Assembly: GCA_945897315.1 (NCBI GenBank)
Contig: CAMDFF010000001.1
Location: 106,366-170,365, forward strand
DNA length: 64,000 bases
Direction: 5' to 3'
Source of the DNA: a candidate division TM6 bacterium UASB124
GTDB taxonomy: Bacteria > Babelota > Babeliae > Babelales > RVW-14
Both the position numbers and the translations under genes were made by a program. Shown piece after piece: positions 39,806-56,933 of this stretch. A model generated the notes under the pieces. That model did no database searches. It saw only the letters and a list, made by a program, of their open reading frames with translations, and was not told the DNA's origin. Every line of letters starts with the position of its first letter. Position 1 is the first letter of the stretch.

Positions 39806-39837
39806 AAGCCCAGAGATTTTAACACATCTCTGGGCTT
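39806..39837. terminator. Hairpin terminator between topA and the convergent ATPase gene
   Basis: AAGCCCAGAGAT-8 nt-ATCTCTGGGCTT. A T-rich tract follows on the minus strand. Confidence 0.6.
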
Positions 39838-39916
39838 CGCACAGTCCATAAAGCCCTACTTGTAGTGTGATTGACGGTGTTTGTGCGAAATTCAACATCA
39901 ATGTTAATATCTGCAC
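39828..39916. repeat. 89-bp direct repeat, copy 1 (49-bp conserved core at 39868-39916)
   Basis: The core TGATTGACGGTGTTTGTGCGAAATTCAACATCAATGTTAATATCTGCAC matches 41272-41320 with 2 mismatches. CTCTGGGCTT lies 40 nt upstream of the core in both copies. Confidence 0.9.
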
Positions 39917-41091: not shown

Positions 41092-41105
41092 GCATTACTC
41101 CTTAT

Positions 41106-41153
41106 TATGAAACTTTCATATATTCTCTGTTCAAGTTTATGAAAATCATAAAC
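41106..41153. promoter_or_regulatory. Two operator-like palindromes upstream of the ATPase gene
   Basis: TATGAAACTTTCATA (41106-41120) and GTTTATGA-AAA-TCATAAAC (41135-41153). They share the half-site TATGA and lie 15-60 nt upstream of the start codon. Confidence 0.3.
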
Positions 41154-41231
41154 TCCGGTCTATTTTTTGTAAAAATACATACAAAACAGGAGTGTCTAGT
41201 TACATTTTTGAATTTTGCGAGCATGTGCCTC

Positions 41232-41320
41232 CTCTGGGCTTTATTCTGTTCCTAATATTTTGCTGGTCGTTTGATTGACGGTGTTTGTGCGAATTTCAAC
41301 GTCAATGTTAATATCTGCAC
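41232..41320. repeat. 89-bp direct repeat, copy 2 (core at 41272-41320)
   Basis: See copy 1. In this copy the core carries a perfect inverted repeat, ATTGACG-N20-CGTCAAT. Confidence 0.9.
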
Positions 41321-41503
41321 GTTATTGTGCTATGTGTTGATCTAGGCGAACAATAGGAGTCTGTATGTTTAATCGAAATTTAGAATCAACGCTCTACTTC
41401 TATGCAAATTTTCCTGTTTTTATAAGAAATACATAAACCTGCTGCCTGTGTGCTAGGGTGAGATAGCGATGGGAAATGGGTTGGGTTTCGAGAAGGGGAT
41501 GGC

Positions 41504-42034
41504 ATGAAAATAGTTATCGTATTATTGTTTTGCTCGGTTGCCTTAGGTGTTCTCCATGCCGCTGATAGCGATGGTAGCGGCAATGACTATTCAGAGGACG
41601 AAATAATAGCAAAAAAGCGCTTTGACGTGCTGTTTGATTTGCGGCCATGGTTATGGCGAGCAGCACACGAGGGAGACGTGCCAGGCCTTGTTGAACTTGT
41701 ACGCGATGGGGTGTCGGTTGATGCGGCAGACTGCCATGGCGTGACGGCGCTCATGCTTGCGGCACATAGTGGCCACTGTGATGCGGTGAAATTTTTACTG
41801 ACTGCGGGGGCCGATGTGAATGCTGCGATGGGCAATGGCATAACGGCGATCATGCTTGCCGCTCATCAGGGGCATCGGATGATTGTTGATGTATTGCTTG
41901 GCGCAAGGGCCGATCTTGGTGTCATGACAGCTGAGCACGAGACGGTGTTGACCATCGCGCTGCCAGGAGCTGACTGGTATTTAATCTGTACATTGCTTGA
42001 CGCAGAAGGCATGAGGGGGCCGGCAAAGCTGTAG
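41504..42034 (+). CDS. Ankyrin-repeat protein with signal peptide
   Basis: About 3-4 ANK units (GVTALMLAAHSGHCDAVKFLLTAGADVNA; GITAIMLAAHQGHRMIVDVLLGARAD). Confidence 0.8.
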   Translation: MKIVIVLLFCSVALGVLHAADSDGSGNDYSEDEIIAKKRFDVLFDLRPWLWRAAHEGDVPGLVELVRDGVSVDAADCHGVTALMLAAHSGHCDAVKFLLTAGADVNAAMGNGITAIMLAAHQGHRMIVDVLLGARADLGVMTAEHETVLTIALPGADWYLICTLLDAEGMRGPAKL

Positions 42035-42063
42035 TGGGGTGTGATGGAAGCTTTTAATCGTGC

Positions 42064-42120
42064 AAAATAACCCACTGCCTGGCAAGCAGCGAGGCTGCCA
42101 GATAGTGGTTCTGGGTCAGG
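42064..42120. repeat. Hairpin repeat element, copy A
   Basis: AAAATAACCCACTGCCTGGCAAGCAGCGAGGCTGCCAGATAGTGGTTCTGGG. Same family as copies B and D. Confidence 0.8.
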
Positions 42121-42202
42121 CAATGGAAGGTGGTATTTGACTAAGGCAGATGATAGACTGGGGCGCTAGAAAGTAAATTGAGCCTTGAAGCAAGGGAGAG
42201 CA

Positions 42203-43795
42203 ATGCAAAAAATATGTGTTACCGAAAAAGAGTTTAAAGCAATACGTGAGGCTGGTGGTGTTTACGTCGATAAAACGAAACATATCAGCGATCTTTTTAG
42301 TGATGATAAATATTTTTTTCTTACCCGCCCGCGTCGCTTTGGCAAATCACTGCTTTGTTCAACATTAGCGGAGTTATTTTCAGCTAACCGTGCATTATTC
42401 AATGGTCTGTGGATTGACAGCAGTGACTGGGTTTGGAAAAAGTACCCCGTGCTTCGGTTTGATATGAGTAAGATTGCATCCCCAACGGCGACCGCAGCAG
42501 ACGTACGGCAGGGGATTGTTAATCTTCTCTCTGATAATGCTCAGCATATCGGCGTAGCTGATCTCAAAGAAGGGACCCCCTATTTAATGTTTGAGCAGCT
42601 GATTAAAAAAACAAAAGAAGTGCATGGAGAAAACGTAGTTGTTCTTATCGACGAGTACGATAAGCCCTTGCTTGACGTTATTAATGATCAGTCTCGTTAT
42701 AGAGACATTCAGAAAGAGCTGTGCGCTTTTTATAGTCAGCTTAAGCCAGCAGAAGAAGATTTAAAATTTGTCTTGATAACGGGGGTTTTTAAATTTACCC
42801 AGGCATCGATATTTTCTGGTCTGAACAATTTAAATGATATTTCTTTCGATCCGCATGCAGCAGAGTTACTTGGATATACGGAGCAAGAAATTAGAGCGTT
42901 TTTTCCGGAACATTTAGCAGTATTAGCTGCTAAAAATAACATATCTGTTGATGCAATGATGTTGAAGCTGCAAAAACACTACAACGGCTATTTTTTTGGT
43001 GTAGATGTTGATACGGGTGAGCCTTTTGGTGGAGTTTATAATCCTTTTGCTTTAAATTATGTTTTTAAAGCACAGCAACAGTTGGATAAGTGGTTTGAAT
43101 CAGGTTCGCCAGCGGCATTAATTAAGAAGCTGACAGCAACCCAGTTTGAAGATCTTGATCCAGAAAATCTAACGGTACATTTTTCAACGCTTGTAAAATC
43201 ATGCAGCGCAGATGACATAACTGCTTTGAGTATGTTGTACTATACAGGTTATGTAACCCTAAAAAAATACCACAATAAAAGAGTAACTCTTGGTTTTCCT
43301 AACGCAGAAGTAGCATGCGCCTTTACGGAGGCATTGTTGCCATTGCTCTTGCACAAAAGCTCAAGCGCTGTTACCAAAATTATGGATAAAATTCATGATT
43401 TATTTGAAGAGGAGCGGCTCAGTGATTTAAAGCAGTTGCTGAATGATGCGCTTGCCCCCGTTGCCTACCCGGTCCTTGCCAAGCCGCAAAATGATTCACC
43501 ACAAGAGCATTTGTATCAGATCGCATTTTATTACCTGTTTATAGGTAGCAAAATGCCTACGACGCTAGAAGATATGACTAATCGTGGCCGCATTGATATT
43601 GTCGTACAGCTACCGTCAGTAATTTATGTTTTTGAACTGAAGATGGATGAGCCAGCGGCAGTCGCGATTCAACAGATCAAAGATAAAGATTATTCGGCAA
43701 AGTTTCGTCATATGGGTAAACAGGTATACGCCATTGGCATTTCGGTAAATTCAGAAAAACGATACGTCAAAGAGCTTGAATGGGAATTGCTATAA
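42203..43795 (+). CDS. AAA-ATPase-like domain protein with PD-(D/E)XK (PDDEXK_9-type) C-terminus
   Basis: N-terminus FKAIREAGGVYVDKTKHISDL...FFLTRPRRFGKSL and VVLIDEYDKPL. C-terminus RIDIVVQ...VFELKMD. The ATG at 42203 follows GGGAGAG; the ORF track starts at a TTG at 42185. Confidence 0.75.
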   Translation: MQKICVTEKEFKAIREAGGVYVDKTKHISDLFSDDKYFFLTRPRRFGKSLLCSTLAELFSANRALFNGLWIDSSDWVWKKYPVLRFDMSKIASPTATAADVRQGIVNLLSDNAQHIGVADLKEGTPYLMFEQLIKKTKEVHGENVVVLIDEYDKPLLDVINDQSRYRDIQKELCAFYSQLKPAEEDLKFVLITGVFKFTQASIFSGLNNLNDISFDPHAAELLGYTEQEIRAFFPEHLAVLAAKNNISVDAMMLKLQKHYNGYFFGVDVDTGEPFGGVYNPFALNYVFKAQQQLDKWFESGSPAALIKKLTATQFEDLDPENLTVHFSTLVKSCSADDITALSMLYYTGYVTLKKYHNKRVTLGFPNAEVACAFTEALLPLLLHKSSSAVTKIMDKIHDLFEEERLSDLKQLLNDALAPVAYPVLAKPQNDSPQEHLYQIAFYYLFIGSKMPTTLEDMTNRGRIDIVVQLPSVIYVFELKMDEPAAVAIQQIKDKDYSAKFRHMGKQVYAIGISVNSEKRYVKELEWELL

Positions 43796-43860
43796 AAACA
43801 ACCCGCTGCCTGGCAAGCGGTGAGGCTGCCAAGGCAGTGGGTTTTAGGTGATGCAAGGGA
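43795..43860. repeat. Hairpin repeat element, copy B (abuts the stop codon)
   Basis: AAAACAACCCGCTGCCTGGCAAGCGGTGAGGCTGCCAAGGCAGTGGGTTTTAGGTGATGCAAGGGA. The arms CCCGCTGCCTGGC and GCCAAGGCAGTGGG pair. Confidence 0.85.
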
Positions 43861-44090
43861 AGCTTTAGGCTTAGTAGGTTAACTGATCATCTTCTCGTGC
43901 TCTACGATTCATGTCTGCAATCGCGGTTTTTTCAGCTAGGTCAATCGTGGCGTACGAGTTAATATATTATTTTTCTTTATTGATCCGTTTTGCTAGCTCT
44001 TGCATAAGCACATAGTGGCTTTTGATAGCGGCAAAAACTTCTCTTGGTTTTGGCTACGGCAGGGATAAAAGACAGCGGGCAAATATAGGA

Positions 44091-44117
44091 AATGCCCACT
44101 GCCTGGTTGGTAAGCGG
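44091..44117. repeat. Hairpin repeat element, truncated copy C (left arm only, abuts the stop codon)
   Basis: The 12-nt run CCCACTGCCTGG is identical to the left arm of copies A and D. Beyond it the sequence diverges and runs into the stop at 44118. Confidence 0.6.
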
Positions 44118-45668
44118 CTACATGGTCCAAACGTGGATAGTTTTAGCCCCAACTAATTCATCAAACTGGGCAATTTTTTCTTCCCACGTTTTTTTATCTG
44201 ACTGGTCAAAAATAACCAAGTGGGCTTCGGTAGCGTTCATGACGTCCATGTATTCTGCCGTCTGCACAAGACCTTCTGGAAGAGTTTTTGTCCCGCGGTG
44301 AATTTTAAGCTCAATTAAAATGCGCTTCTTGCCAAAAACAAGAGTCAGGTCAACACGGCCACGGCCAAGGGCATACTCGCGCTGCAGCGTTCCGCCGCCG
44401 TTGATAATGCGTTGCAGGTAGGCAAACATAAGCAAATGTGGTCCAGACTCTTTGTACTGGAACTGCTCTGCCCACATTCCGCTGTTTTCACGATAAAAAG
44501 TTACCCAGTCGTTCATCATTTTATTCATGTTAAACGACCCATCGGGGTGCAGATAATCTAGCGGTCGCTGCGTCATTGTTTGTTGCTTGACGTATGTTAA
44601 TGCCCGAGGGAAAACTTCTTTATAAATTGGGTTAGCAATCGCGAGATCTTTTTGCGTCACGATTCCCAGGTCGCGAGCATATTGCAAATCGTCCATCGGT
44701 AGGTTGTCAGGCGGGGTGCTTCCTGCAATAAGAGCATCCACAATAGCTCGCACACGAGGTTCTTGCAGTTTATGCACCAGTTGGTCGATATGCGTATCGC
44801 GTCGCAGAATAAGCGCTTCTCGCGCTGCCTCCATCGCTTCAAGCGTGATGGGCTGGGAGCGGTCTTGCACTGCACGAAAACAGGCTTGATAGGCGAGTGC
44901 GTTCACCAGCCAGGGCTGGCCCTGCGTCTGGTCGAAGGCGTAATCGATGGCTTCGTCAGTAAAAAGTTGCCCCGTCGCAGCCGTGTGCTGGAGGTACAGT
45001 GCTTTAACTTCTGCGAGAGTAAAAGATTCTATGGTCAGGCTTTCAGCTTTAATATTAAAAGCGCTTCCACCCAAGATCATGTTATTTTCTTGCTTTGAAT
45101 AAATCATGTAATCACGCACATCCCGTACGCCGATGAGGCATAAAGATTGGGGGAAATGCTTGGGGCGGTTGGTGTAGCCTGTGCGAAGCTGGCGAAGGAC
45201 TGAGATGAGTGTGTCGCCAATTAAAGCGTCAATTTCGTCAATAAAAAGAACAATTGGCTTTGTGCTATTTTTTGACCAATTATTTAAAAATGAGACAAGA
45301 GTTGTGGCGGGACTGAGTCGCCAATTGTCATCGCTAAAAAAGCTCAGAGAGCAGTGATCAGCTCCCCAAGCATTACTAATTTCTTCTTTAAGCCGCATGA
45401 GTACCGTAGTAATGCCACGAACATAGTTTTGACGATCTGCCTGAGCTGCTTCAACATTCACATACAGGGCTTCATATTTGCCAGTCGCATTAAGCTTATT
45501 GACCAGCTCTAGCATCGCCGTTGTTTTGCCACTTGGTCGGGGGGCGTGCACAATAAAATATTTTTGCTGATCAATCAGCTGCATGAGCAATGTTTCGTTC
45601 ATGCGAAATGGTACAGAGTAATGATTTTCAGGCTGAATTGGCCCAGCGATACAAAACGTTTTTTCCAT
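44118..45668 (-). CDS. P-loop ATPase (AAA-like) with PD-(D/E)XK-like C-terminus
   Basis: Walker A APRPSGKTT, Walker B LFIDEIDAL, and C-terminal GRVDLTLVFGKKRILIELKI (D...ExK). Confidence 0.65.
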   Translation of the reverse strand: MEKTFCIAGPIQPENHYSVPFRMNETLLMQLIDQQKYFIVHAPRPSGKTTAMLELVNKLNATGKYEALYVNVEAAQADRQNYVRGITTVLMRLKEEISNAWGADHCSLSFFSDDNWRLSPATTLVSFLNNWSKNSTKPIVLFIDEIDALIGDTLISVLRQLRTGYTNRPKHFPQSLCLIGVRDVRDYMIYSKQENNMILGGSAFNIKAESLTIESFTLAEVKALYLQHTAATGQLFTDEAIDYAFDQTQGQPWLVNALAYQACFRAVQDRSQPITLEAMEAAREALILRRDTHIDQLVHKLQEPRVRAIVDALIAGSTPPDNLPMDDLQYARDLGIVTQKDLAIANPIYKEVFPRALTYVKQQTMTQRPLDYLHPDGSFNMNKMMNDWVTFYRENSGMWAEQFQYKESGPHLLMFAYLQRIINGGGTLQREYALGRGRVDLTLVFGKKRILIELKIHRGTKTLPEGLVQTAEYMDVMNATEAHLVIFDQSDKKTWEEKIAQFDELVGAKTIHVWTM

Positions 45669-45764
45669 CTGTTGAGACCTTTGCTTTGTGATCTTTATGC
45701 TATTTTTGAAGCTAGCAAGCTTTGCTTAGCATAGCAGATAAGGTGTATCTTCCCAAACTGATGG

Positions 45765-45830
45765 AAAACAACCCACTGCCTGGCAAGCAATGAGGCCGCC
45801 AAGACAGTGGGTTTTAGGTGATGCAAGGGG
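45765..45830. repeat. Hairpin repeat element, copy D
   Basis: AAAACAACCCACTGCCTGGCAAGCAATGAGGCCGCCAAGACAGTGGGTTTTAGGTGATGCAAGGGG. Nearly identical to copy B, including the 3' extension. Confidence 0.85.
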
Positions 45831-45845
45831 AGAGTGGGGCGTTGA

Positions 45846-46937
45846 TTAGACAAAAATATCGATATTTTGGGTTCTACGTTTTGCTTCTAACATGGCGTTT
45901 TTCTCCGCTTGGAGTAATATTTTTTGTGTTTGCTTGGCAAATGATGAGACGTCTTTAAGGCTATCATTTCTTGCCGTCTTTTCAGCATCGGTCATCTGAG
46001 AATCTGGTGGCGGCAGGAAAAACGTTGAAGGGGGTTTTTTGGAGCTAGTAGCATTCTTATCTGCTTCTAACTGTCTATACACCGGGCCGTCATCTTGCTT
46101 AGTGGTTGCTGGCTTATTGCTGCCATCAGGTGAACCAGTATTGTTTTTTCGAGCCCCTGTGCCGTGGTGCCCAGGCGTATAATAATTTTCAGTGGTATTC
46201 ACGATATTTTCGTCATCTATAAGTGAATCATCGTGATCTACAGGCTGGTCGCTATAGTTATTATCCCATGCATTATTATTGAAATCTGTCTGTGGTGTGG
46301 AGCTGCTTTCATGCTCTGCAGGTGAAGCAGCAAGAGGGCGCAGATTGGGAGCTTTAGAAGCAAATTTGTGCGTTGTTGCCGGGAGAGTAGGATTGATTGT
46401 TTTGAGGGCTTGAATTTTTCTAGGGGCAGCAGGTCCAAATGGCATGTGCAGGGTATTGGCGTTCACATTGTTTTGTGTTGTGGTGAAGAGGTCATACACG
46501 TCACTGCGCCATGCATTAGCAGAGGTTGCAACTTCGGCATTGTAGCTGCTGTCTGGAAGTTGGAATTCATCTGCAATAACTTCAATATTGGTAAGCACTG
46601 TGCTTATGGACTTTTGATCATATGTGCCCTGCAAAACACCTTTAACAGTGCGGACAGTTGGGTCAAATAGATCGCGTTTCCAGGAAAATTTTTTTATATC
46701 AAAGCCTGCTTTTTTAGCTGGGTCTTTGATGAGAGTGCGCTTGAGGGCGTCAAGTAGCTTAAGGGTTGCTTGCAGGTGCAGCGCCGACGGGGTGCGTTGT
46801 ATTTGTTGTACGTCATTTTGAAGGGTGAGATGAAATGATGGCGATGCGCATAGAAAGTAGAGTGCAAGGCTTATGGCAAAGATTGGAGCGAGTAGGAGCC
46901 CGAGTGCCTTCCCTGTAAATAGTTTATCTGTAACCAT
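45846..46937 (-). CDS. Hypothetical membrane-anchored protein with low-complexity C-terminal half
   Basis: N-terminal TM helix (ALGLLLAPIFAISLALYFLCA). No family motif recognised. Confidence 0.5.
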   Translation of the reverse strand: MVTDKLFTGKALGLLLAPIFAISLALYFLCASPSFHLTLQNDVQQIQRTPSALHLQATLKLLDALKRTLIKDPAKKAGFDIKKFSWKRDLFDPTVRTVKGVLQGTYDQKSISTVLTNIEVIADEFQLPDSSYNAEVATSANAWRSDVYDLFTTTQNNVNANTLHMPFGPAAPRKIQALKTINPTLPATTHKFASKAPNLRPLAASPAEHESSSTPQTDFNNNAWDNNYSDQPVDHDDSLIDDENIVNTTENYYTPGHHGTGARKNNTGSPDGSNKPATTKQDDGPVYRQLEADKNATSSKKPPSTFFLPPPDSQMTDAEKTARNDSLKDVSSFAKQTQKILLQAEKNAMLEAKRRTQNIDIFV

Positions 46938-46960
46938 CGCAACACCCCTTTCTATTGTTT

Positions 46961-46999
46961 CGGGCGAGCTGCAAATATTTGCAGCTCGCCCGTTTTTTT
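46961..46999. terminator. Perfect 32-nt palindrome plus T7
   Basis: CGGGCGAGCTGCAAATATTTGCAGCTCGCCCG followed by TTTTTTT on the plus strand. Both flanking genes are on the minus strand. Confidence 0.45.
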
Positions 47000-47017
47000 A
47001 TGCTATGCGTATGCTAA

Positions 47018-47785
47018 TTAAGCAACAACACCAGCGCCTGCTGCAATTGCTCGAACAGGTGTCTTTGATGCATCAACAGTTTGTTTGACGAGAGCAAATA
47101 GGTTGTTGATAGTATCCTTGAAACCATTCCAGGCTTGGCTAATAGCTGCTTTTACGCCGCCGCTAAAAACAGATGCGACAGAGTTTTTGATGTTGCGGAA
47201 CAGAACCCAAAAACCGACCGTTTTGTCCGCATTTTGGCCAGAGGCTGCTTGTAAACCTGTAATAACTGCTGCTTTGTCACCATCTGGTAGTGCATCAACT
47301 ACAGCAAGGAGTTTGACCTTCGTGAAGGTGGCATAGTTGTTTTCATTGGCAACCTGGATATGAATATCATCATGGCGTGCTAATCCATAAAGATTAAGGC
47401 GATCAACATTTTGGCCACGGATAGCTGCCAGGATATCCTCATTTGTGGTATCTGCCACAAGGGAGCTTACGGCCAACTGTGCTGCTTTGACAACAGCATT
47501 TAGTATGATCATGCGTGTGGTGCTTGATCCGTTGTACGGATTGACATCATTGCGCAAGCCATTCAAGTAGTTTTGTGCTTGCTCTGTGGCTAGAAACTCT
47601 ACGATATCAGTATGGTTTTTTGATACTGTAGCATCATTTCCGTCTGTGTGTGTAAACAAACATGCCATAAATGTAGTCGGGTTGTCTATTGCGTCTCCGC
47701 CTGCGCCTCTTCTTGCAGCAGCAGAAATCGCTTGCGTACTCATTAAAATGCTGACCAGTAACATAAGTTTTTTGAAATTATTCAT
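47018..47785 (-). CDS. Hypothetical exported protein (array member 2)
   Basis: The ATG at 47785 lies downstream of GGAGG. Signal peptide MNNFKKLMLLVSILMSTQAISAAA, followed by RRGAGGDAI. Confidence 0.55.
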   Translation of the reverse strand: MNNFKKLMLLVSILMSTQAISAAARRGAGGDAIDNPTTFMACLFTHTDGNDATVSKNHTDIVEFLATEQAQNYLNGLRNDVNPYNGSSTTRMIILNAVVKAAQLAVSSLVADTTNEDILAAIRGQNVDRLNLYGLARHDDIHIQVANENNYATFTKVKLLAVVDALPDGDKAAVITGLQAASGQNADKTVGFWVLFRNIKNSVASVFSGGVKAAISQAWNGFKDTINNLFALVKQTVDASKTPVRAIAAGAGVVA

Positions 47786-47861
47786 GAGAACCTCCATTGA
47801 AATAGTAAAAAAACGAACAACTAACTAATAAACAACAATTTTAAAAATTCACATTAAATAT

Positions 47862-48725
47862 CTAGGCCAAGTATGGTTCGAGTTTGAGCGGTGCTTGATA
47901 ACTCATCCAAGCAAGGCCAGCAAGCATTGCTGCGCAGGTTGGAACCACAGCAAGTGTGGTTAAAGGCGTTGTTCCTCCGTCCATGCGTATTGCATCAACC
48001 ATTCCACTACCAATACAGTAGGTTGTGCTTGCAGCAGCTGCATAGCCGATATACGAAAGCACTTTACGCGTTAAAGACGGTCCAGTTGCAACACGCGGTC
48101 CAGCCATAATCGTGGCTCGTAGTATTGCTACACGGGCTAGCACAAAATTTCCAAAGCTTATGTTTTCACCGGCAAGCGTGGTGAGCTGTTCTCCTCCGTG
48201 TGCCGTGATAAGTGCATTATAAAGCTGTGAGACGGGATCTGTCTGCACGAGCAGGCCACCTGTTGCTGTCGGAGTAAGCATCGTAGCGTGATCTGCAAGA
48301 TATGCTTGCCGTGCAGTGTGTGCTTTTTCAAAAAAAGATCTCATAAAATTATGAAGTCGTAAAAATTTCACAAGGGCAGGATCTCTCGTTTGTCCATCTC
48401 TGGCAAAATGTCCATCATTGCCGACCCACGCATTGAACGTTGGTGCTAGTTGCAGTGTTCTAATGCAAGCGGCATCAAATCCATCTTGTCGGACAGATTC
48501 TTCTAGCGTGAAGTTTGTATTGCTAAATATGCGGGCAAGGGCACCGCGTATAAGCACTTTGTTTGGCATAGCAATTTGTGTATTAAACGCATCGCCGCCT
48601 CCAACGCTGGCAACATATTCATTTGTGATAGTTTGTGCTATCGCAGCATGGTCTGCTGCGCGTAGAGTCTGTCCAATGAGAGTTGCGCTCAAGAAAGCAG
48701 CTACTGTAAATATTTTTTTAATCAT
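47862..48725 (-). CDS. Hypothetical exported protein with hydrophobic C-terminus (array member 3)
   Basis: Signal peptide MIKKIFTVAAFLSATLIGQTLRA, a C-terminal hydrophobic stretch, RBS AGAGGA. Confidence 0.55.
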   Translation of the reverse strand: MIKKIFTVAAFLSATLIGQTLRAADHAAIAQTITNEYVASVGGGDAFNTQIAMPNKVLIRGALARIFSNTNFTLEESVRQDGFDAACIRTLQLAPTFNAWVGNDGHFARDGQTRDPALVKFLRLHNFMRSFFEKAHTARQAYLADHATMLTPTATGGLLVQTDPVSQLYNALITAHGGEQLTTLAGENISFGNFVLARVAILRATIMAGPRVATGPSLTRKVLSYIGYAAAASTTYCIGSGMVDAIRMDGGTTPLTTLAVVPTCAAMLAGLAWMSYQAPLKLEPYLA

Positions 48726-48752
48726 TATTGTATCCTCTTAAAAATTTTCTTA

Positions 48753-49865
48753 TTACTGTTTAATGCCTGGAACCCAGCTAAATGCCCAGTTGAGTGCTTT
48801 AGTTACATCTCGTGTAATTCCAAAACCTGTGCGGCACTTAGATTCCATTGTTTCAGCAACAACGTCAGCGCATGGCCCTGTGAAATCTTTTGCGGAGTAG
48901 AAAGCTTGTCCCACGGTGTTAACGAAAGCTTTCTTGAAGCCAGTAGGAGCTGAGCATTCACTCAAAAGCGTTCTCTTTGCGACGTCTGCACAATTTTCTA
49001 CCACTGCTTCTACCGCTGCGCTTGGCGCAATACTAGGCATAGGCATTGGACAGCTGCTCCGAGCAGCACTGGCGAATTTTGTGGTAAGTTCAGCAACGCT
49101 TGCTTCCAAACGGCTGAGTTTAGCAGGCATGGTGAGTACATCGCGTACCATCCCCGTAACTTGTCCAATAACCTGCATAATTTCACCTGAGTAAGCGTAC
49201 GTTATGTACGTTGCAGCACCGACAACAACAAGGCCAAACGTTGCCTTGAGTATGGTGGTACGACGTTGTGTTGCAGCGCGTGTCTTGAGTTCACGTATTT
49301 TCAGCCCTGCATATGCGTTATTGTAACGCATATCTTTGTCGATTTTTTCTCTGCGACCATTTCCTGATAGATAAGCAGGAATAGTTGTGCTTGTTGCAGC
49401 ACTAGTATCTGTCATAACGTGAGCAGTTGGCACAACAACCGGGCTAGTTTCAACAATTCTAACCTCTGCTTGGCCAGTGGCCAATACAAGATTAACGTGT
49501 GCTGCTACTACGGGAGCAACAGGCACAACATCAGCAGGACGAATATCGAGCTGTTCAAGTGCTTGCAGGTAGTCCCGCATAAAATTTCTGGCAGCGACAG
49601 ATGTCGTCTTATCTGTTTCAAGATCTCCACCTGCAAGCAAGCGATCAACAATAGCCATAACAGCTTTACGTGTGCTCGGATGTGTCTTGTCATTTCTTAA
49701 CTTTGTTTCTACTGCTGCACGGTCAAGTGCTCCGGCAACACGGCGAGCTGCTCGTGCATGAAGAGCATCGGCACCGGCTCGTACTGGTCCAGCTGCAGCG
49801 CTCAAGCCTACAAAAGCTTGTGAAGCAAGCAGTAGTCCTGTGAGTACTAATTGTAACGTTTTCAT
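48753..49865 (-). CDS. Hypothetical exported/TM protein (array member 4, paralogue of 50680-51594)
   Basis: Signal peptide, AAAGPVRAGADALHARAARRVAG, a Val/Pro/Ala linker, a TM helix (FGLVVVGAATYITYAY) and a Cys-containing tail ending NWAFSWVPG. Confidence 0.6.
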   Translation of the reverse strand: MKTLQLVLTGLLLASQAFVGLSAAAGPVRAGADALHARAARRVAGALDRAAVETKLRNDKTHPSTRKAVMAIVDRLLAGGDLETDKTTSVAARNFMRDYLQALEQLDIRPADVVPVAPVVAAHVNLVLATGQAEVRIVETSPVVVPTAHVMTDTSAATSTTIPAYLSGNGRREKIDKDMRYNNAYAGLKIRELKTRAATQRRTTILKATFGLVVVGAATYITYAYSGEIMQVIGQVTGMVRDVLTMPAKLSRLEASVAELTTKFASAARSSCPMPMPSIAPSAAVEAVVENCADVAKRTLLSECSAPTGFKKAFVNTVGQAFYSAKDFTGPCADVVAETMESKCRTGFGITRDVTKALNWAFSWVPGIKQ

Positions 49866-49907
49866 AATAACCTCCATTATTTATTTCTATAATTCTATTC
49901 AGTTTGT

Positions 49908-50627
49908 TTATTCATAGCCCGTGACAACAAGCGCCACTTTGGTCAGCACGCCTACTAGCGGGTAAGAAATAAGGGCTTTGATGGGTATAGCAATCAATAG
50001 TGCCGGTATTTCAGGATCTATTGTTGAACAGGCAAACGCTAATGCAATTACTGCTGGCGCTACGCGACGGAGTCTTGTTGCATCCTCAGGAACGCCGAGG
50101 TAATTTGTTGTTGCTGTACGTTTACAGCGCTCCCAGAGGCTGGTAGCCAATCTTTTACCTGTTGCACATGCTTTACTGGTTGTTTCTTTAATTTTAGCTT
50201 CAATTGCTTCATAGGGTACTTGTTTTGCTGCGCAGAAAGCGATGACGCCACTGCCTGCGCCATAGTAGGCACCAAGGGTTTCATTGGCAGCTGCAAATGC
50301 AGCTGTAGCAATTACTAGTGGTGCAATCTGGCGCGAGCGACACAGCGGTGCTGGCGCAGGTGCAGGTAGGGCAGGAGCAGGTGCTGGAACAGGTGCAGGT
50401 GCTAGTGCTGGCGCAGGTGCTGGTGCTGGCGCAGGTGCTGGTGCTGGAACAGGTGCAGGTGCTGGTGCTGGAACAGGTGCAGGTGCTCGCGCAGGTTGCG
50501 GGGCAGTCGAAGCATGAACATGTGCCAGAGTACGTCTAGCAGATCGTAGAATACCTGTAGCGGGCATGGCGCAAATGTTGCCAATAGTTACTAAACAGCT
50601 CAAGCTAATAATTAATAATTTCTTCAT
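49908..50627 (-). CDS. Hypothetical exported/TM protein with (P-A/V)n linker (array member 5)
   Basis: Signal peptide, ~60 aa of PAPAPV repeats, and several hydrophobic helices. Confidence 0.55.
   Translation of the reverse strand: MKKLLIISLSCLVTIGNICAMPATGILRSARRTLAHVHASTAPQPARAPAPVPAPAPAPVPAPAPAPAPAPAPALAPAPVPAPAPALPAPAPAPLCRSRQIAPLVIATAAFAAANETLGAYYGAGSGVIAFCAAKQVPYEAIEAKIKETTSKACATGKRLATSLWERCKRTATTNYLGVPEDATRLRRVAPAVIALAFACSTIDPEIPALLIAIPIKALISYPLVGVLTKVALVVTGYE
50347..50495. repeat. Imperfect tandem repeat built on GCAGGTGCTGGT units
   Basis: Repeated GGTGCTGGCGCAGGTGCTGGTGCTGGAACAGGTGCAGGT blocks. They encode the PA/PV linker on the minus strand. Confidence 0.85.
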
Positions 50628-50679
50628 TGTATTATCTTTCTTTAAATATTAAACAAATTTTAATCGACTATTACTTTTT

Positions 50680-51594
50680 TTAACTACGGATTACTTGGAA
50701 CAACCAAGACAAAACTCCGGGGCTTGCTTCTTCTGGTGTGCGTATCATGGTCTTTAGGGCGGCGGTAGCAGCTGCATTGTCTAGTAGAACGCTGGTCTGT
50801 TCAGCGCATAGCTTGCTGAAATTTGGTGTTGGGTCTGAGCAAAAACATTCATAACCATGTGAGCACAGTGCGTCTTGGGCAAACTTCGTCGCACGGTCTA
50901 GGTAGGGCGTGTAAAATTCAACGGCTTTGTCTACATACGGGGCACACAAAGCAGAGGCTTTTTCTAGATACGGGGTGCAAAACTCAGCTGCTTGGGCATA
51001 TCTCGGAGATGCTTTAACCATTTCCACTGCTGCTGGAATAACCTCAGGAAAGCTATAGGTGAGCACCAAGCCAATTCCCGCGATTGAGACCACAGAAATA
51101 GTGACATATTTATGGCGAGCAAAAAAGCTTCGTGGGGCTGGTTGTATAGCGATGATCTGTGCAGTCTTGAGTTGCTGTTGGAGAGAGATGATTTCGGCTT
51201 CAGCTTTCTTTAAAGCCTCAAGCATTGCCTCAGGCGTTGCATTGGTTGTCATTGTTGTTTGAATTAGCTCTAGAACTGCCCCTGTTTGTATCGCATGTTG
51301 AATAGTAGCAGTTTGTGTCGCCGTGGCTTGGATCACTGCAGGAGCTACAGTTGAAGGGGTAAGCGGTGCTGTAGGTACTGTCGCTGCAGGCATTATTGCC
51401 GTAGGCATGGTAGCTTTCGGTGATTTTGTAGATCTTCTACAGCAAAGCCCCGCGAGCCTTGCTTCTCTTTTTATATGAAGATTGGTTGCGCCGCTTCGTT
51501 CTGGCCCGGCTGAAGCATCAAGGCTAATAGCAGCCTGTGCTGCAATAAGAAGACTTATTGCTAATAATTTAAATACTGTCTGTGATGTGTTCAT
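50680..51594 (-). CDS. Hypothetical exported/TM protein (array member 6, paralogue of 48753-49865)
   Basis: Signal peptide, ASAGPERSGATNLHIKREARLAG, a Thr/Pro/Ala linker, a coiled-coil-like EAEIISLQQQLK, a TM helix (VTISVVSIAGIGLVLTY), three F.TPYL.KA-type repeats, and a Cys-rich tail ending SWLFQV. Confidence 0.6.
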   Translation of the reverse strand: MNTSQTVFKLLAISLLIAAQAAISLDASAGPERSGATNLHIKREARLAGLCCRRSTKSPKATMPTAIMPAATVPTAPLTPSTVAPAVIQATATQTATIQHAIQTGAVLELIQTTMTTNATPEAMLEALKKAEAEIISLQQQLKTAQIIAIQPAPRSFFARHKYVTISVVSIAGIGLVLTYSFPEVIPAAVEMVKASPRYAQAAEFCTPYLEKASALCAPYVDKAVEFYTPYLDRATKFAQDALCSHGYECFCSDPTPNFSKLCAEQTSVLLDNAAATAALKTMIRTPEEASPGVLSWLFQVIRS

Positions 51595-52041
51595 AATAAC
51601 CTCCATAAACTCATCGTGTTAAACTTTACATAAAACCATGTACTCACCCTACAAGACATTAAAAACAATGTCAAATGGGTAATATATACTGGATATGCGG
51701 TGCAATATTTGTTCAATAGAAATAATTAATCAAAAAAAGCTAACCAACAATAAGCCTTGAACCTGGAGTAAACCTCCAGTGACTCTCGCAGATAGCTCAG
51801 GGCAATTTCAAAGGTTGATTTAGCCTAGCGCGTTACAATCGCAATAAAAAACGCCACAAAGTGTTGTTTAATAGATAGCGAATGCGCATTAATTGGCAAA
51901 AACTATAGTTTTTTGTTTAAAAGAGCTGGTTTTTTTAAAAGCAGGGGGCTCTTGAGATTAAAAAAGGGAAATTGTGGCTGAAATGAAAGCGTGAATGACA
52001 AAGAGATTTTTTAAGATGAGGAGCTAAAAATGGCTGAACGC

Positions 52042-52081
52042 AAAAAAGGGCCTGCTACCGAATCTACGATAGAAGGCCCTT
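52042..52081 (-). terminator. Rho-independent terminator
   Basis: On the minus strand: AAGGGCCT-20 nt-AGGCCCTT followed by TTTTGCG. Lies 30 nt downstream of the stop at 52112. Confidence 0.65.
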
Positions 52082-52111
52082 CTCTGAAAAAAGTTATGAA
52101 TAGCTTTCGCG

Positions 52112-52450
52112 TTACATAACCGAGCTCCTTTGTTCATACTCCCAATAACGAGTAACTCCTGGTTGATATTCATGAAGCATCGCTGTTCGAGAAGCCATTT
52201 CTGACCCATAAGCAGCGCTTGCTACAATCTGCGACCCGCCACTGGCTTGCGCCATAGGCTTGACAATCGATCTCATCATTCCTGAAGTCTCCTTTATAAG
52301 GGGGGTACACTGACCTTGGCCTTTTTCTTTGCGATCTGCTATCACACCAGCATCAGTAGATATCTCTATCGACGGAATATGCTGCGAGAGCGAGCACGAA
52401 GAAAGCATCAGCAACAATAGCTTCAGCTTAAGACGTTTGGTTACTGTCAT
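52112..52450 (-). CDS. Hypothetical small lipoprotein
   Basis: The ATG at 52450 follows GGAGAGG. Signal plus lipobox: MTVTKRLKLKLLLLMLSSC. Confidence 0.5.
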   Translation of the reverse strand: MTVTKRLKLKLLLLMLSSCSLSQHIPSIEISTDAGVIADRKEKGQGQCTPLIKETSGMMRSIVKPMAQASGGSQIVASAAYGSEMASRTAMLHEYQPGVTRYWEYEQRSSVM

Positions 52451-52859
52451 ACGACCTCTCCTTTCGTTAAAAACGATATGGCCTGCCATTCTTTTTATCC
52501 TCCGTAGCCACGCAGGGCGCAGGGGGAAGCTACAAGCCCTTTAGGGAGCAGAGCATAGAATGGTTTTGATGAACGAGCATTTCATGTTTTTATGATAGCA
52601 CAGTATTTTAAAAAATACAAATAGAAAAATCAAATAATTTTTTAAAAGGGCTATTTATGCAATAATTGTTCAAAAAAGCTCTGTTTTTATGCGAAATAGT
52701 ATCAGGCTGGAAATTTATAATATTCAATTGTAGCTCTAAAAAAGACTATTTTGTGCTGCCGAAAACAGTGACAGGCGCGCTGTATGACAGCATAGCCTCT
52801 GAAAAAGACGACTGTGCCGATCTATCCAGCGTGCTCGGGGAAGGGGGTGGTTTTTTGGC

Positions 52860-54558
52860 TTAAGAAATAAACGGGCTGTTAAACGCGCGCAGTGCTTCCA
52901 GTGCATTAACTTCGGTAATCTGTTTATTATTTACCAAGAGCATGCGGTCGACATTTTGTAAAATGCTGGGACGATGTGAGACAATAATCACCGTCTTCTG
53001 CCCGCGAAGTGTTTCGATGGTCTGGCGGATCATGCTTTCAGATTCATCATCCAGTGATGACGTAGCTTCATCGAAAATAAAAATCTCAGGGTTTTTGAGG
53101 AGCGCTCGAGCAATGGTTAAGCGTTGCTTTTGGCCGCCAGAGAGCTGGCCGCCATTTTCACCAACAGTCGTATCGTACCCCTGGGGTAATTGGCGAATAA
53201 ATTCATCTGCGTGTGCCGCTTTGCAGGCACTAATCACATCTTCTCTGGTTGCTGTTTTATTTGAATAGGAAACGTTATTGGCTACCGTATCATTAAATAA
53301 AAATGTTCGCTGCCCAACATAACCGATATTATTGCGCAAGCTGACAAATGAAGCCTTAGTGATAGGTGTTCCATCCATATAAATATGACCTGATAGCGGA
53401 ATGCTGAATCCGAGCAGCAGGTCACACAAGGTGCTTTTTCCTGCTCCTGAGGGGCCTATGATTCCAACAAAGTCGCCTTTGTTAATCGTGAGCGAAGCAT
53501 CGTGGATTACTTCTGACTGCTGGTCTTCGTAGGCAAATGAAACATGGTCAAACCTGATATGATCACGAAAAGGAGGCAACTCGAAGGTCCTGTTTTGGGT
53601 AGCAGGAAAAACGCTATCAGTCAGTGCAAATATGCGCTCAGCGGCAGCAAGGCCGTACTGGACATCAGAGTAGACATTGACGATTTTTTTGAGCGGGACG
53701 TACGCTAAAAGCACTGCTGCAATAAACGATGTTAGCTGTCCGGCGGTGATAACGCCATCAAGTACTTGGTGGGCGGCAACGTAAAAAATAACACTACACC
53801 CTAAGATTGCAATTGCTTCGATCATTGCAGGTAGCGCACATTCAATATTTGCGCTGATCATGATGGCATCAAAGCAGTGCTGGAGGCGATTTCTAAATCT
53901 TTTCTCCTCTGTTTTTTCAGCGTTAAACGCTTTGATTTCGCGAATTCCTACAAAGACTTCTTGGAGCAGGGAGCTGATCATGCCAAGTTGTGTTTGAATA
54001 GAAATGGACGCACTTTTGCGCGCTCGGCCGAGATTGCGAATGGTGATGGCCATAATCGGTCCAATGATGATCATCAAAATGCCAAGCGTTTGATTTTGAT
54101 AAATTGCAAAGCTTACAAGACACAGCGCTTCAAAAAAGCTCCGGATGCCGTCTTTGATCGCTGATGTTGCTGCCTGCTGTACCATCTGTACATCATTGAG
54201 GAAGTGAGACATGAGCATGCCGGTAGGATTTTTTTGGAAGAAAGAGAGTGGATAATTAATGAGCTTTGAAAAAAATATCATGGCGCAAGTCATTAATAAC
54301 TTTATTGTTTACCCAGTGCATGGTGTAGCTGGAAAGGTACATGAACAGGCCTTTGAGAAAAAAGACCGCTATAAACATGAGTATAAAGGGGACAATAAGA
54401 TGGCTGTAGCGGTTGATAAAAACTTCATCAACGGTGTGCTTGAGCACGTAGGTTGGCAGCGCAGAAACGATTCCAAAAAGCGTAGCACTCACAAGCGAGA
54501 AGGTTAATGTTTTCCAATAGGGCTTTGTGTAGCGCAAAACGCGCATTAATGTATTCAT
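52860..54558 (-). pseudogene. MsbA-like ABC exporter (permease + ATPase) interrupted by a frameshift in a homopolymer
   Basis: ORF 54256-54594 encodes TM1-2 up to ...VINDLRHDIFF. ORF 52860-54293 continues with IFFSKLINYPLSFFQKNPTG..., Walker A GPSGAGKST, LSGGQKQR and IFDEATSSLD. The two frames meet at the A7 run 54269-54275. Confidence 0.7.
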
Positions 54559-54610
54559 AAAAATTATATAAAGTAATGGGTGATATATCACCAAAACTAT
54601 AGCATAAATG

Positions 54611-54679: not shown

Positions 54680-55378
54680 TTACTGTTTACATTGCAGGCG
54701 GAGCAAAAAAATTGTTTCAGAAACTAAATGCGCTTTGACCCAGGCTTTTTGTTTTGCATCAAGCAACTCACCAAGCCCCGATAAGATACTTTTTGTATTG
54801 ATAGATTCAAGTGTTGTAATTGCTTTTTGAGTAAATTGAGGCAATGTCATATTTGTCCTTAGCTTGATAATATTTTCATTGATAGCCCAATTATTTTTAA
54901 GTAAAAACCAGACGTCATAAATATCGCGATTCGCTTTACCTGCACGTTCTAGCATGGCAACTAATTTGTGTGCAGCCATGTCTGCTTGAACCATTACATT
55001 TATGGCAATTCCCAAATAAGATTTTACTTCGTATCGAGAGCCGAAATTTCTTCTATTGATCTCAATTTTAATGTTGTAGCCGTCTTGTATTTTTTGATCG
55101 TAGGACAACAAAAAAAAGAGACTATAGCGTTTTTTGCGAGCATCTTTGATGGTGCCATAAGTTTGTAATATTTTTTGTATGGATTCAAAAATAGCATCTT
55201 CATTTGTATCATCAAGCAAATCAAAATCTAGATCAACTGAAAAACGTGATAAATCATAGAACAGATAGGCTGCTGTGCCACCCTTAAAGCCCAGTAGCGG
55301 GCCTATTTTGGTATTTGTATAAATATCTTTTAAAATATGAATAAGCATATTGTGGTGAATGGCAGGAACAAGCGTCAT
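54680..55378 (-). CDS. abiEii: Nucleotidyltransferase AbiEii/AbiGii-family toxin (type IV TA)
   Basis: GFKGGTAAYLFYDLSRFSVDLDFD motif typical of DUF1814/AbiEii. 232 aa. Confidence 0.75.
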   Translation of the reverse strand: MTLVPAIHHNMLIHILKDIYTNTKIGPLLGFKGGTAAYLFYDLSRFSVDLDFDLLDDTNEDAIFESIQKILQTYGTIKDARKKRYSLFFLLSYDQKIQDGYNIKIEINRRNFGSRYEVKSYLGIAINVMVQADMAAHKLVAMLERAGKANRDIYDVWFLLKNNWAINENIIKLRTNMTLPQFTQKAITTLESINTKSILSGLGELLDAKQKAWVKAHLVSETIFLLRLQCKQ

Positions 55379-55965
55379 TGTAATCCTTCGTCTATTTCAA
55401 AGCCTTTGAAATAGGATCGTACTTTTTGCTCCATGCGTTTATTGGAGTACAGGGGGAGGAGCTCAAAAATTTTATCTTTATTGAGAGGGGCTAAATTATC
55501 AAAATGATAATCTTTACTAAGGTATAGAACGTCCAGAAATGCTCGTTCTGGTGATGCTGCATAGTAGTTATCTCTACGCTCAATACCCATTTTGTTGGTT
55601 AGAATCGTATCTTTTAGCTTTTTAAATGAAAAAGCTTGTCCGCCGCATACAATATCTTTTGTTTGGTAAGATGCTACAAAAATGGTGCTGTAGTACTGAA
55701 AAATAACACCTGCTTGGGCAAGAATAGTTTCAAAACTGACATAGGCAGGAGTAAAAATTTTTGTAGCGAGCTCATAACGATCGTAATTGCTATCTTTTGC
55801 GTAAAGGCCCCTACGAATTGGGTGCAGTTCTTTTTGTTTTACATAATAGCTAATACGTCTTCTTAAAAGAGCGGGTATTGTTTCACGAGAAAGCAGCAAA
55901 AGCTCTTTAAAGGTGAAAACAGTGGAGGTTAGGCGTAAGAAATTAAGAAGATTTGTTTTTCTCAT
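55375..55965 (-). CDS. abiEi: AbiEi-family antitoxin/transcriptional regulator
   Basis: N-terminal wHTH-like region with LHPIRRGLYAK, then PAYVSFETILAQAGV. ATGA overlap with abiEii. Confidence 0.65.
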   Translation of the reverse strand: MRKTNLLNFLRLTSTVFTFKELLLLSRETIPALLRRRISYYVKQKELHPIRRGLYAKDSNYDRYELATKIFTPAYVSFETILAQAGVIFQYYSTIFVASYQTKDIVCGGQAFSFKKLKDTILTNKMGIERRDNYYAASPERAFLDVLYLSKDYHFDNLAPLNKDKIFELLPLYSNKRMEQKVRSYFKGFEIDEGLQ

Positions 55966-56138: not shown

Positions 56139-56933
56139 TTACTGTGCTGGGCATTCACCAGGGTAGTCTGCAACCATAGCACGTCGTGCTGCTCGATCGC
56201 TGACTACTTTGGTGTATTTTCCTGTGTGTGTTGCTCCAGTCTCTCTGAGCATTCCAGCAATACACGCATGTTTTTTGTCCACAGCGTAGTCTAGCGCATT
56301 GAATTCTTGTTCGTTGATATTATGCACCACTGATGCAGCTTCTGCTAAGCCTAAAAACCAGCCTACAAAATGCTCATCGCCTTTCTTAACAGCACAGAGA
56401 AGGGCGGTATCCTTATCGTTATCAGTAGCAGTTGCGTCAGCACCAGCCTCATATAATGCCTGAGCTAGTCTGACATTGCCCGTGCAGGCTGCCATGATAA
56501 AGGGGGTTGGTGCAGGATTGTTATGTAAGTCAACTGAAATGCCTTTTGTGGTATAAGCTTTAATTAATATCAGGGCATTTTGAGTTTTATCTGGATCAAT
56601 AGCTGCAAGACCTAGGGCTGTGTTTCCCTTGGCCGTACATTCATCCAGTGCTACATCGTGCTCACAGAGTATTTGTACTATGGTTGCGCTGGAAGATGCT
56701 GCTGCATAGTGCAACAAGCTTATGTCCTCGTCGCATTCGATGGGTACTCGTACTGCACATAGTTCAGGATAGTTGCTGATTAAAGAGTTTACTTCGCTAC
56801 TATTGCCTGTGCAAATTGCAGTTATCAGTGCTGCACGTTGATCTGGCGCTGGCGCTGGTGCTGAAGCTTGTACGTGTTGGCCAAAGAGTAGCCCACTTGT
56901 CATCGCAAGTGTTAGAAAACGTGTATTCATCAT
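56139..56933 (-). CDS. Ankyrin-repeat protein with signal peptide
   Basis: Signal peptide, then ANK units (ISLLHYAAASSSATIVQILCEHDVALD; GNTALGLAA; TPFIMAACTGNVRLAQALYEAGADATA; DTALLCAVKKGDEHFV; FNALDYAVDKKHACIAGML). Confidence 0.8.
   Translation of the reverse strand: MMNTRFLTLAMTSGLLFGQHVQASAPAPAPDQRAALITAICTGNSSEVNSLISNYPELCAVRVPIECDEDISLLHYAAASSSATIVQILCEHDVALDECTAKGNTALGLAAIDPDKTQNALILIKAYTTKGISVDLHNNPAPTPFIMAACTGNVRLAQALYEAGADATATDNDKDTALLCAVKKGDEHFVGWFLGLAEAASVVHNINEQEFNALDYAVDKKHACIAGMLRETGATHTGKYTKVVSDRAARRAMVADYPGECPAQ

Follow-up and report, generated by a model that had tools for sequence, protein, structure and literature searches.

Here we describe a cluster of six genes, m1 to m6, on the minus strand of a 64,000-nucleotide (nt) stretch of DNA from candidate division TM6 bacterium UASB124 (GenBank assembly GCA_945897315.1, contig CAMDFF010000001.1, positions 106,366 to 170,365 of the forward strand; this whole stretch is called the window below). 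We consider it established that the six are real genes, that their order is kept in a second lineage, that they did not arise by paralogous expansion, that they lie at an accessory location between topA and msbA, and that their products belong to no detectable family. One operon is the best explanation for their arrangement, and we give about an even chance to the reading that the six proteins are a lineage-restricted envelope or surface set, acting together, within the fast-evolving secretome of signal-peptide-bearing orphans in a bacterium associated with a protist or a host.

Gene calls and coding status

The coordinates of the six genes, with protein lengths in amino acids (aa), are given here; ORF stands for open reading frame.

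45846-46937, minus, m1, 363 aa, from the ORF listing
47018-47785 (ATG alternative at 47797), minus, m2, 255 aa, or 259 aa from 47797
47862-48725, minus, m3, 287 aa, from the ORF listing
48753-49865 (ATG alternative at 49877), minus, m4, 370 aa, or 374 aa from 49877
49908-50627, minus, m5, 239 aa, from the ORF listing
50680-51594 (upstream in-frame ATG at 51606), minus, m6, 304 aa, or 308 aa, the first gene of the operon

A first-pass annotation, made from the letters of the window without database searches, had reported six consecutive and closely spaced minus-strand genes, and both the coordinates and the spacing stand: the gaps m1/m2, m2/m3, m3/m4, m4/m5 and m5/m6 are 80, 64, 27, 30 and 52 nt (range 27-80). 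A codon log-likelihood model was trained on 49 other ORFs from the window, and under this model the six genes score 0.20-0.29 per codon in their own frame, the background being 0.23 ± 0.07. The five other frames all score below zero in every gene but m5, which has one reverse-strand frame at 0.06. A Shine-Dalgarno-like sequence is visible 5′ of the start in every case, and the six ORFs are real genes with native codon usage.

Conservation in a second lineage

A search with the m2 protein found P0010 (51-52% identity) on L082, a 3.4-kilobase (kb) contig from run SRR15198247, to which a second contig, L083 from run SRR15198263, is identical. The contig carries relatives of four of the six genes.

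m4-like gene, 3′ half, 28% identity over the C-terminal half, E 9e-19
m3-like gene (P0011), 36-38% identity, E 8e-41
m2-like gene (P0010), 52% identity, E 6e-86
m1-like gene, 42% identity, E 6e-80

They lie on one strand in the order m4-m3-m2-m1, as they do in the window, so the conservation of genes and adjacency that the first-pass annotation had proposed looking for in a relative is there to be seen. Run ERR3719148 supplied two further contigs, L081 and L084; the latter is identical to the window and the former differs by one 1-nt indel, so that both belong to the same strain as the window, and the copy of m6 on L081 is identical.

Operon anatomy

Two RNA elements accompany the genes.

46961-46992, minus, hairpin between m2 and m1, a 14-base-pair perfect stem with an A-run on its 5′ side and without a U-tract
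45765-45832, minus, palindromic repeat of about 68 nt, a hairpin followed by a U-run, 3′ of m1

The hairpin between m2 and m1 folds at -34.8 kcal/mol (z -6.6) in the window and at -27.6 kcal/mol (z -4.1) in L082, where it takes the same position with a different stem sequence. By analogy with the intercistronic stem-loops of other operons, this candidate element could stabilize the mRNA upstream of it or attenuate m1. The repeat 3′ of m1 is likely to be the terminator of the operon, and it is only after m1, among the six genes, that a terminator-like hairpin with a U-run is found. It also follows the m1 orthologue of L082 (3331-3399, 85% identity). Further copies lie at 43795-43862 and, in part, at 42061-42100; within the window they are confined to the accessory segment described below, and the repeat looks like a terminator element of the REP (repetitive extragenic palindromic) or MITE (miniature inverted-repeat transposable element) kind. 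Short gaps, ribosome-binding sites, hairpin and terminator hold together as the anatomy of an operon, which is best explained as a single unit running m6-m5-m4-m3-m2-hairpin-m1-terminator.

A shared initiation motif

A short motif recurs at three of the six starts.

51590-51606, minus, initiation motif ATGGAGGTTATTATGAA of m6 (GGAGG, a 5-nt spacer, then ATG)
49861-49877, minus, identical copy of the same motif at m4
47781-47797, minus, variant motif ATGGAGGTTCTCATGAA at m2

The starts of m4 and m6 are the only two places in the window with the first form. The GGAGG stands 5 nt ahead of the second ATG, which makes 47785, 49865 and 51594, the starts of the first-pass annotation, the probable true starts. 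The m2 motif is identical at 17 of 17 positions in the L082 orthologue, while the proteins are only 52% identical, and this retention of the 17-mer through such divergence points to a constraint on initiation and not to recent duplication. The identical 17 nt at m4 and m6 had been offered as a sign of duplication; the sequence is present as described, but it consists of a Shine-Dalgarno sequence and a start codon and cannot serve as evidence of that kind.

Relationships among the six proteins

It had further been proposed that the cluster arose by local gene-family expansion, and this claim did not survive comparison of the proteins with one another. In Smith-Waterman alignments of the mature parts against 200 shuffles, all 15 pairs gave z below 2.4. 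Using orthologue-pair profiles, hhalign aligned residues 1-53 of m4 with residues 1-57 of m6 (probability 92%, E 6e-7) and gave the 14 other pairs a probability of at most 3%; BLASTP among the six agrees that the N-termini of m4 and m6 are the sole relationship. The 35 residues after the signal score 57 against each other in m4 and m6, compared to 20 ± 4 for shuffled sequences (z = 9, none of 2000 shuffles as high), so that the kinship exceeds what the composition of signal peptides would give. The two proteins have the motif AGPxRxGAxxLH...R.AG in common, and at the nucleotide level their similarity begins at the 17-mer and fades past about 130 nt, the DNA upstream being unrelated. Only the initiation motif links m2 to this pair. 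Thus m4 and m6 share a 5′ module, made of the initiation region, the signal peptide and the post-signal motif, and the remainder is alike in layout only. They had been called collinear, which is right for the architecture (signal, linker, hydrophobic segment, Cys-bearing tail) and wrong for the sequence beyond about 57 residues; with only these first residues homologous and the other pairs at the level of shuffles, family expansion is left with marginal support.

Composition

Two remarks on composition had been made by eye, namely that the proteins are strikingly Ala-rich and that the DNA is GC-richer than its flanks. The first is true of m2 to m6, whose Ala content is 14.8-22.9% compared to a background of 8.9 ± 2.5%, but not of m1 (9.9%). 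The second is measurable, in that the GC of the six genes is 0.44-0.51 versus 0.43 in the background, but the excess is confined to codon positions 1 and 2 (GC1, GC2). GC at the third position (GC3) is 0.30-0.40 versus 0.39, and because it is equal to or lower than background, the raised GC reflects the codons of Ala, Pro, Gly and Thr and not foreign DNA; it is a by-product of the Ala and Pro content and no independent signal. Horizontal transfer as the source of the raised GC is therefore rejected.

Searches for known families

The first-pass annotation could place none of the proteins in a known family and had called for profile searches, and these leave the proteins where it had put them. 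Pfam and NCBIfam (scans at E <= 1), PHROGs and PADLOC returned nothing significant for any of the six: the best PHROGs match has E 0.0024, to a family of unknown function, and the best PADLOC match E 0.0055 with 12.8 bits. In m5 it is the (Pro-Ala)n stretch that draws every one of the sub-threshold NCBIfam matches (TonB, SslE, GltG and others). Against PDB sequences nothing scored below E 0.5, whether the query was a single sequence (m2, m3, m4 or m6) or a two-sequence profile (m1 or m2). With tblastn there was no match for m1, m4, m5 or m6 in plasmids, none for m6 in phages, and none for any of the six in 80 loci around tyrosyl-tRNA synthetase (TyrRS) genes, the four closest relatives included. 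When 5.8 billion proteins were searched with m4 by word index, the only match was m4 itself, and an exhaustive HMMER search with m3, over 1.84 billion representative proteins, had two matches, m3 itself and P0011, its L082 orthologue. Scans of metagenome contigs with two orthologue alignments, of m2 and of m1, turned up matches to the pattern but no true relatives.

Several named systems were considered and rejected on these and other grounds. Type IV pilins and pseudopilins have no counterpart here, as neither Pfam nor NCBIfam gave an N_methyl match and the motif G|(F/M)xxxE is absent by eye. An outer-membrane beta-barrel does not fit the last residues of the six proteins (V, A, A, Q, E and S, none of them aromatic), nor low-confidence models of m2 and m3 that are almost entirely helical. 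A phage or anti-phage defense module is not indicated, since the six have no significant PHROGs or PADLOC match and the plasmid (m1, m4, m5, m6) and phage (m6) searches found nothing.

Anatomy of the six proteins

All six proteins begin with a hydrophobic segment preceded by a basic residue. N-terminal signals were judged by a hydropathy heuristic, with A-x-A-like cleavage sites sought by eye; such sites are found in m2 to m6 and none is found in m1, whose 21-residue segment is followed by Pro, so that its N-terminus is an anchor. The earlier description of five classical signal peptides and one N-terminal transmembrane anchor therefore holds in its heuristic features, and the word classical has that heuristic as its basis. 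The N-terminal and internal hydrophobic peaks reach 1.5-2.1 in Kyte-Doolittle hydropathy over 19 residues (KD19), which falls among the values of the bona fide membrane proteins of the window (median 1.73).

After its anchor, m1 consists of a domain of about 120 residues, a linker of about 170 residues rich in Asn, Asp, Thr and Pro, and a conserved C-terminal helix. The domain is 56% identical to that of the orthologue and the linker 29%, with 31 gapped columns, and a conserved domain beside an indel-rich linker is the pattern typical of a spacer. The best-conserved member, m2 (52% to P0010), has a signal-like N-terminus and a mature part of about 230 residues that is without an internal membrane segment and predicted to be all-helical. 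A signal-like N-terminus also opens m3, followed by a predicted-helical domain of about 190 residues and two moderately hydrophobic C-terminal helices (KD19 1.47 and 1.68).

In m4 the signal-like N-terminus leads into the post-signal motif, a linker rich in Val, Pro, Ala and Thr, and a single hydrophobic segment, at 212-229, whose N-flank is strongly basic; its C-terminal tail holds four Cys in two CxDxV-x8-C-x(1-3)-TGF repeats, and all four are kept in the orthologue. The N-terminal part of m6 ends in ASA|GP, and then come the motif shared with m4, a Pro/Thr/Ala-rich stretch, a coiled-coil-like helix and a single hydrophobic segment (167-186 in the 308-aa numbering), also with a basic N-flank. 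Its tail has six of the eight Cys of the protein and three 11-residue repeats, FCTPYLEKASA, LCAPYVDKAVE and FYTPYLDRATK.

The remaining member, m5, has a signal-like N-terminus, a basic stretch, about 60 residues of (Pro-Ala)n with interspersed Val and Leu, and paired hydrophobic segments; it is 23% Ala and 14% Pro and has 7 Cys. At the DNA level the (Pro-Ala)n stretch is an imperfect 6/18-nt tandem repeat (50347-50496). It is inside this repeat, at 50458, that a short-read contig from the same strain breaks off, and the protein collection has no exact copy of m5, though the proteins of its neighbors are present; the repeat may be variable in length or simply hard to assemble.

Genomic setting

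The operon and the genes around it are bounded by topA and msbA.

39922-52859, accessory segment of about 13 kb between the 3′ ends of topA and msbA, with three ATPase genes, an ankyrin gene, a lipoprotein ORF and the operon
37504-39783, plus, topA
52860-54594, minus, msbA
39922-41091, AAA_14/DUF4143 ATPase, matching the PADLOC candidate defense family PDC-S01 at E 5e-95

The nearest available genome, L001, is a metagenome-assembled genome (MAG) labelled uncultured Pseudomonadota, with 69% identity in TyrRS, 69% in TopA and 58-69% in MsbA. In that genome the convergent topA and msbA genes abut, without the segment of about 13 kb, and the operon thus sits in an accessory, variable region despite its native codon usage. 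The other genes of the segment encode an ankyrin protein with a signal peptide, an AAA-ATPase/PD-(D/E)XK protein and another ATPase. The wider window holds three amino-acid permeases, a Bat operon, a C11 peptidase, a leucine-rich repeat (LRR) protein, two ankyrin proteins and an AbiE pair, so that the ankyrin, LRR and C11 proteins on which the first-pass annotation had leaned for its host-interaction idea are all present. Both ankyrin proteins and the C11 (clostripain-family) peptidase have signal-like N-termini (41504-42034, plus; 56139-56933, minus; 24823-26727, plus). Two of these three ankyrin and C11 proteins carry an APAPAP-type spacer after the signal, like that of m5, which suggests a common design for exported proteins in this organism.

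Interpretation

If the evenly balanced reading given at the outset is right, six mutually unrelated orphans, probably largely helical, would leave the cytoplasm via the Sec pathway. Among them m2 would be a soluble exported protein and m1 a signal-anchored one with a long disordered linker, and m3 to m6 would each have an export signal at the N-terminus, together with hydrophobic segments, internal or C-terminal, and extended spacers rich in Pro, Ala, Val and Thr. A lineage-specific assembly would be kept in the envelope by its membrane segments, with the linkers projecting its domains across or out of it. We infer all of Sec export, membrane topology, co-assembly and host contact from the sequences, and a host-interface role for these proteins is a plausible conjecture.

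A precedent for such a set exists in the Dependentiae, where Chromulinavorax destructans has signal peptides on 44% of its coding sequences, a subset enriched in ORFans, and on 78% of its ankyrin proteins (PMC6561590). The operon resembles that secretome in having orphans with export signals, in neighbors (ankyrin proteins and proteases) that also bear signal peptides, and in a presumed role, either within the envelope or in manipulating a host. The features of an orphan secretome found here are the N-terminal export signal, by heuristic, the lack of homologues outside the lineage, and eukaryote-like neighbors that bear signals. The operon differs from the C. destructans secretome in being a tight set of six genes whose order is kept in a second lineage, and the likeness is one of kind and not of homology.

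Other systems are alike in some respects and unlike in more. Inc proteins of chlamydiae have no Sec signal peptides, and their bilobed domain consists of two segments of about 20 residues with a short loop. Like the chlamydial Inc clusters (incD-G), the genes here are small, lineage-specific, clustered, probably co-transcribed and fast-evolving and encode hydrophobic segments, which are paired in m3 and m5; unlike them, they encode Sec-type signals, four of the six lack a bilobed domain, there is no sequence similarity, the nearest relatives are not chlamydial, and no type III secretion system is visible within the 64 kb. Identification as Inc proteins was rejected, since the paired segments are found in m3 and m5 only, with a single segment in m4 and m6 and none past the N-terminus in m1 and m2. 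With envelope spanners that have rigid Pro/Ala-rich spacers, such as TonB, TolA and the OmpA hinge, there is a likeness in the spacer of about 60 residues of (Pro-Ala)n in m5, in the Pro/Val/Ala/Thr-rich spacers of m4 and m6, and in the layout of m1 as anchor, long linker and C-terminal module. However, no TonB_C, TolA or OmpA domain is found, all matches being far below the cut-offs, and in m4 to m6 the order is reversed, with an N-terminal signal and the membrane segment past the spacer; a TonB/TolA-type spanner was rejected, as the sole TonB match lies on the spacer of m5 (E 0.021, 14.7 bits against a cut-off of 315). Mce operons likewise have six consecutive same-strand genes with N-terminal hydrophobic segments and some Pro-rich regions, but here there is neither an MlaD/MCE domain nor a YrbE permease gene, the neighbors being ATPases, an ankyrin gene and msbA, and the six are not paralogues; that identification too was dropped.

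Several points weigh against an envelope or surface set acting together. One concerns topology, in that the counts of Lys + Arg and of Asp + Glu in the 15 residues before the internal segment are 5/0 in m4, 4/1 in its orthologue and 3/0 in m6, and the C-flank is neutral or acidic in all three. Under the positive-inside rule the upstream region would then be cytoplasmic and the Cys tail outside, and a cleaved signal predicts the opposite. The N-terminal segments of m4 and m6 may therefore not be ordinary cleaved signals, or the internal segments may lie outside the bacterial inner membrane; with KD19 of 1.5-1.9 the internal segments fall within the range of real membrane helices in the window (median 1.73), which does not settle the topology. 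Co-assembly of the six proteins is something that we infer from the operon structure. AlphaFold2 models from two-sequence alignments reached a pLDDT of 33 for m2 and 38 for m3, and they are mostly helical and unusable. Individual queries to the large protein collections covered m2, m3 and m4, and the one diverged relative known is represented by L082, a contig of 3.4 kb with counterparts of m1, m2, m3 and part of m4.

The proteins might be host-directed membrane effectors that insert into a host-derived membrane, similar in function to those of the Inc, Legionella and Coxiella kinds, with Cys-bearing tails and Pro-rich spacers facing host compartments; we hold this doubtful, yet it is the reading that the basic N-flanks of m4 and m6 would suit, as they misfit a simple inner-membrane topology and would fit another membrane. 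It also draws on the neighboring ankyrin, LRR and C11 genes and the export signals in that context, on the fast and uneven divergence (28-52% identity) with indel-rich linkers, on the paired hydrophobic segments of m3 and m5, and on the precedent that intracellular parasites of protists offer with their Sec-signal orphan secretomes (PMC6561590). The 64 kb do not, however, demonstrate a secretion system, a host or an intracellular lifestyle, and the nearest TyrRS relatives of the window are MAGs labelled Pseudomonadota. The absence of Sec signals from Inc proteins and of the bilobed domain from m1, m2, m4 and m6 speaks against it as well, the hydrophobic segments are indistinguishable from ordinary bacterial membrane helices, and a tight operon with a conserved initiation motif and hairpin looks more like the coding of a stoichiometric complex. 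An undescribed apparatus that spans the envelope or inserts into a host membrane, with the N-terminal modules of m4 and m6 exported, their basic-flanked segments in a second (outer or host) membrane and disulfide-bonded Cys tails beyond it, we regard as improbable; if it were true, a protist-associated lineage would have a surface or effector system of a new class, Sec-dependent and membrane-inserting.

We consider it very unlikely that the operon is antagonistic or self-protective cargo of a genomic island, such as a helical toxin or bacteriocin-like protein that is exported, together with membrane immunity proteins. The location would suit such cargo, within a 13-kb segment that is missing from the nearest genome and holds the PDC-S01-type ATPase (E 5e-95), the PD-(D/E)XK ATPase and repeats, with an AbiEii toxin gene beside it, and the C-terminus of m2 has a sub-threshold match to a bacteriocin-like peptide model. 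That match (E 0.11) is not significant, though, and there is no PADLOC, PHROGs, plasmid or phage match, no integrase or transposase nearby, and both GC3 and codon usage are native. That the ORFs are spurious, or decaying and non-functional, is scarcely credible and already near refuted. Almost no homologues exist and the neighboring msbA is frameshifted in the assembly, but the frame-specific native codon usage, the lengths of 239-370 codons with a Shine-Dalgarno-like sequence before each start, and the intact L082 orthologues in the same order, at 28-52% identity with domain-specific conservation, all speak for working genes. What probability remains goes to an explanation outside this list.

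As it stands, this is a conserved cluster of exported orphans, which is a common feature of host-associated genomes. If the six proteins do form a functional surface or host-interface assembly, they would offer a handle on how this lineage builds its envelope or makes contact with its host, together with six new protein families.

Other observations in the region

A small ORF lies within the accessory segment, upstream of m6.

52112-52450, minus, small ORF with its own Shine-Dalgarno sequence, a lipobox-like signal (MTVTKRLKLKLLLLMLSSC) and a hairpin past the stop

It is also called on L081 and has no family match; its product may add a seventh to the exported proteins of the region, from a separate transcript. 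At the other end of the segment, 89-nt direct repeats at 39828-39916 and 41232-41320 (80% identical) flank the AAA_14/DUF4143 ATPase gene, an arrangement that may be the footprint of a gene insertion.

The msbA gene is split in the window by a one-base homopolymer difference at 54269-54275, a run of 7 where L081 has 6; the L081 gene is intact, at 565 aa, and the split in the window reflects an assembly error or else a pseudogene of very recent origin. At 54680-55965 on the minus strand, with msbA on one side and an ankyrin gene on the other, stands a gene for an AbiEii-type nucleotidyltransferase toxin whose start overlaps the stop of an upstream 196-aa ORF by 4 nt. That ORF has no Pfam match, and the two are probably a type IV toxin-antitoxin pair. 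At this place L001 has duplicated ankyrin and small exported genes: in the interval from TyrRS to msbA, at 11332-14131 of L001, an ankyrin gene and a small signal-peptide gene are duplicated in tandem, which marks the interval as a hot spot for accessory exported proteins in the lineage.

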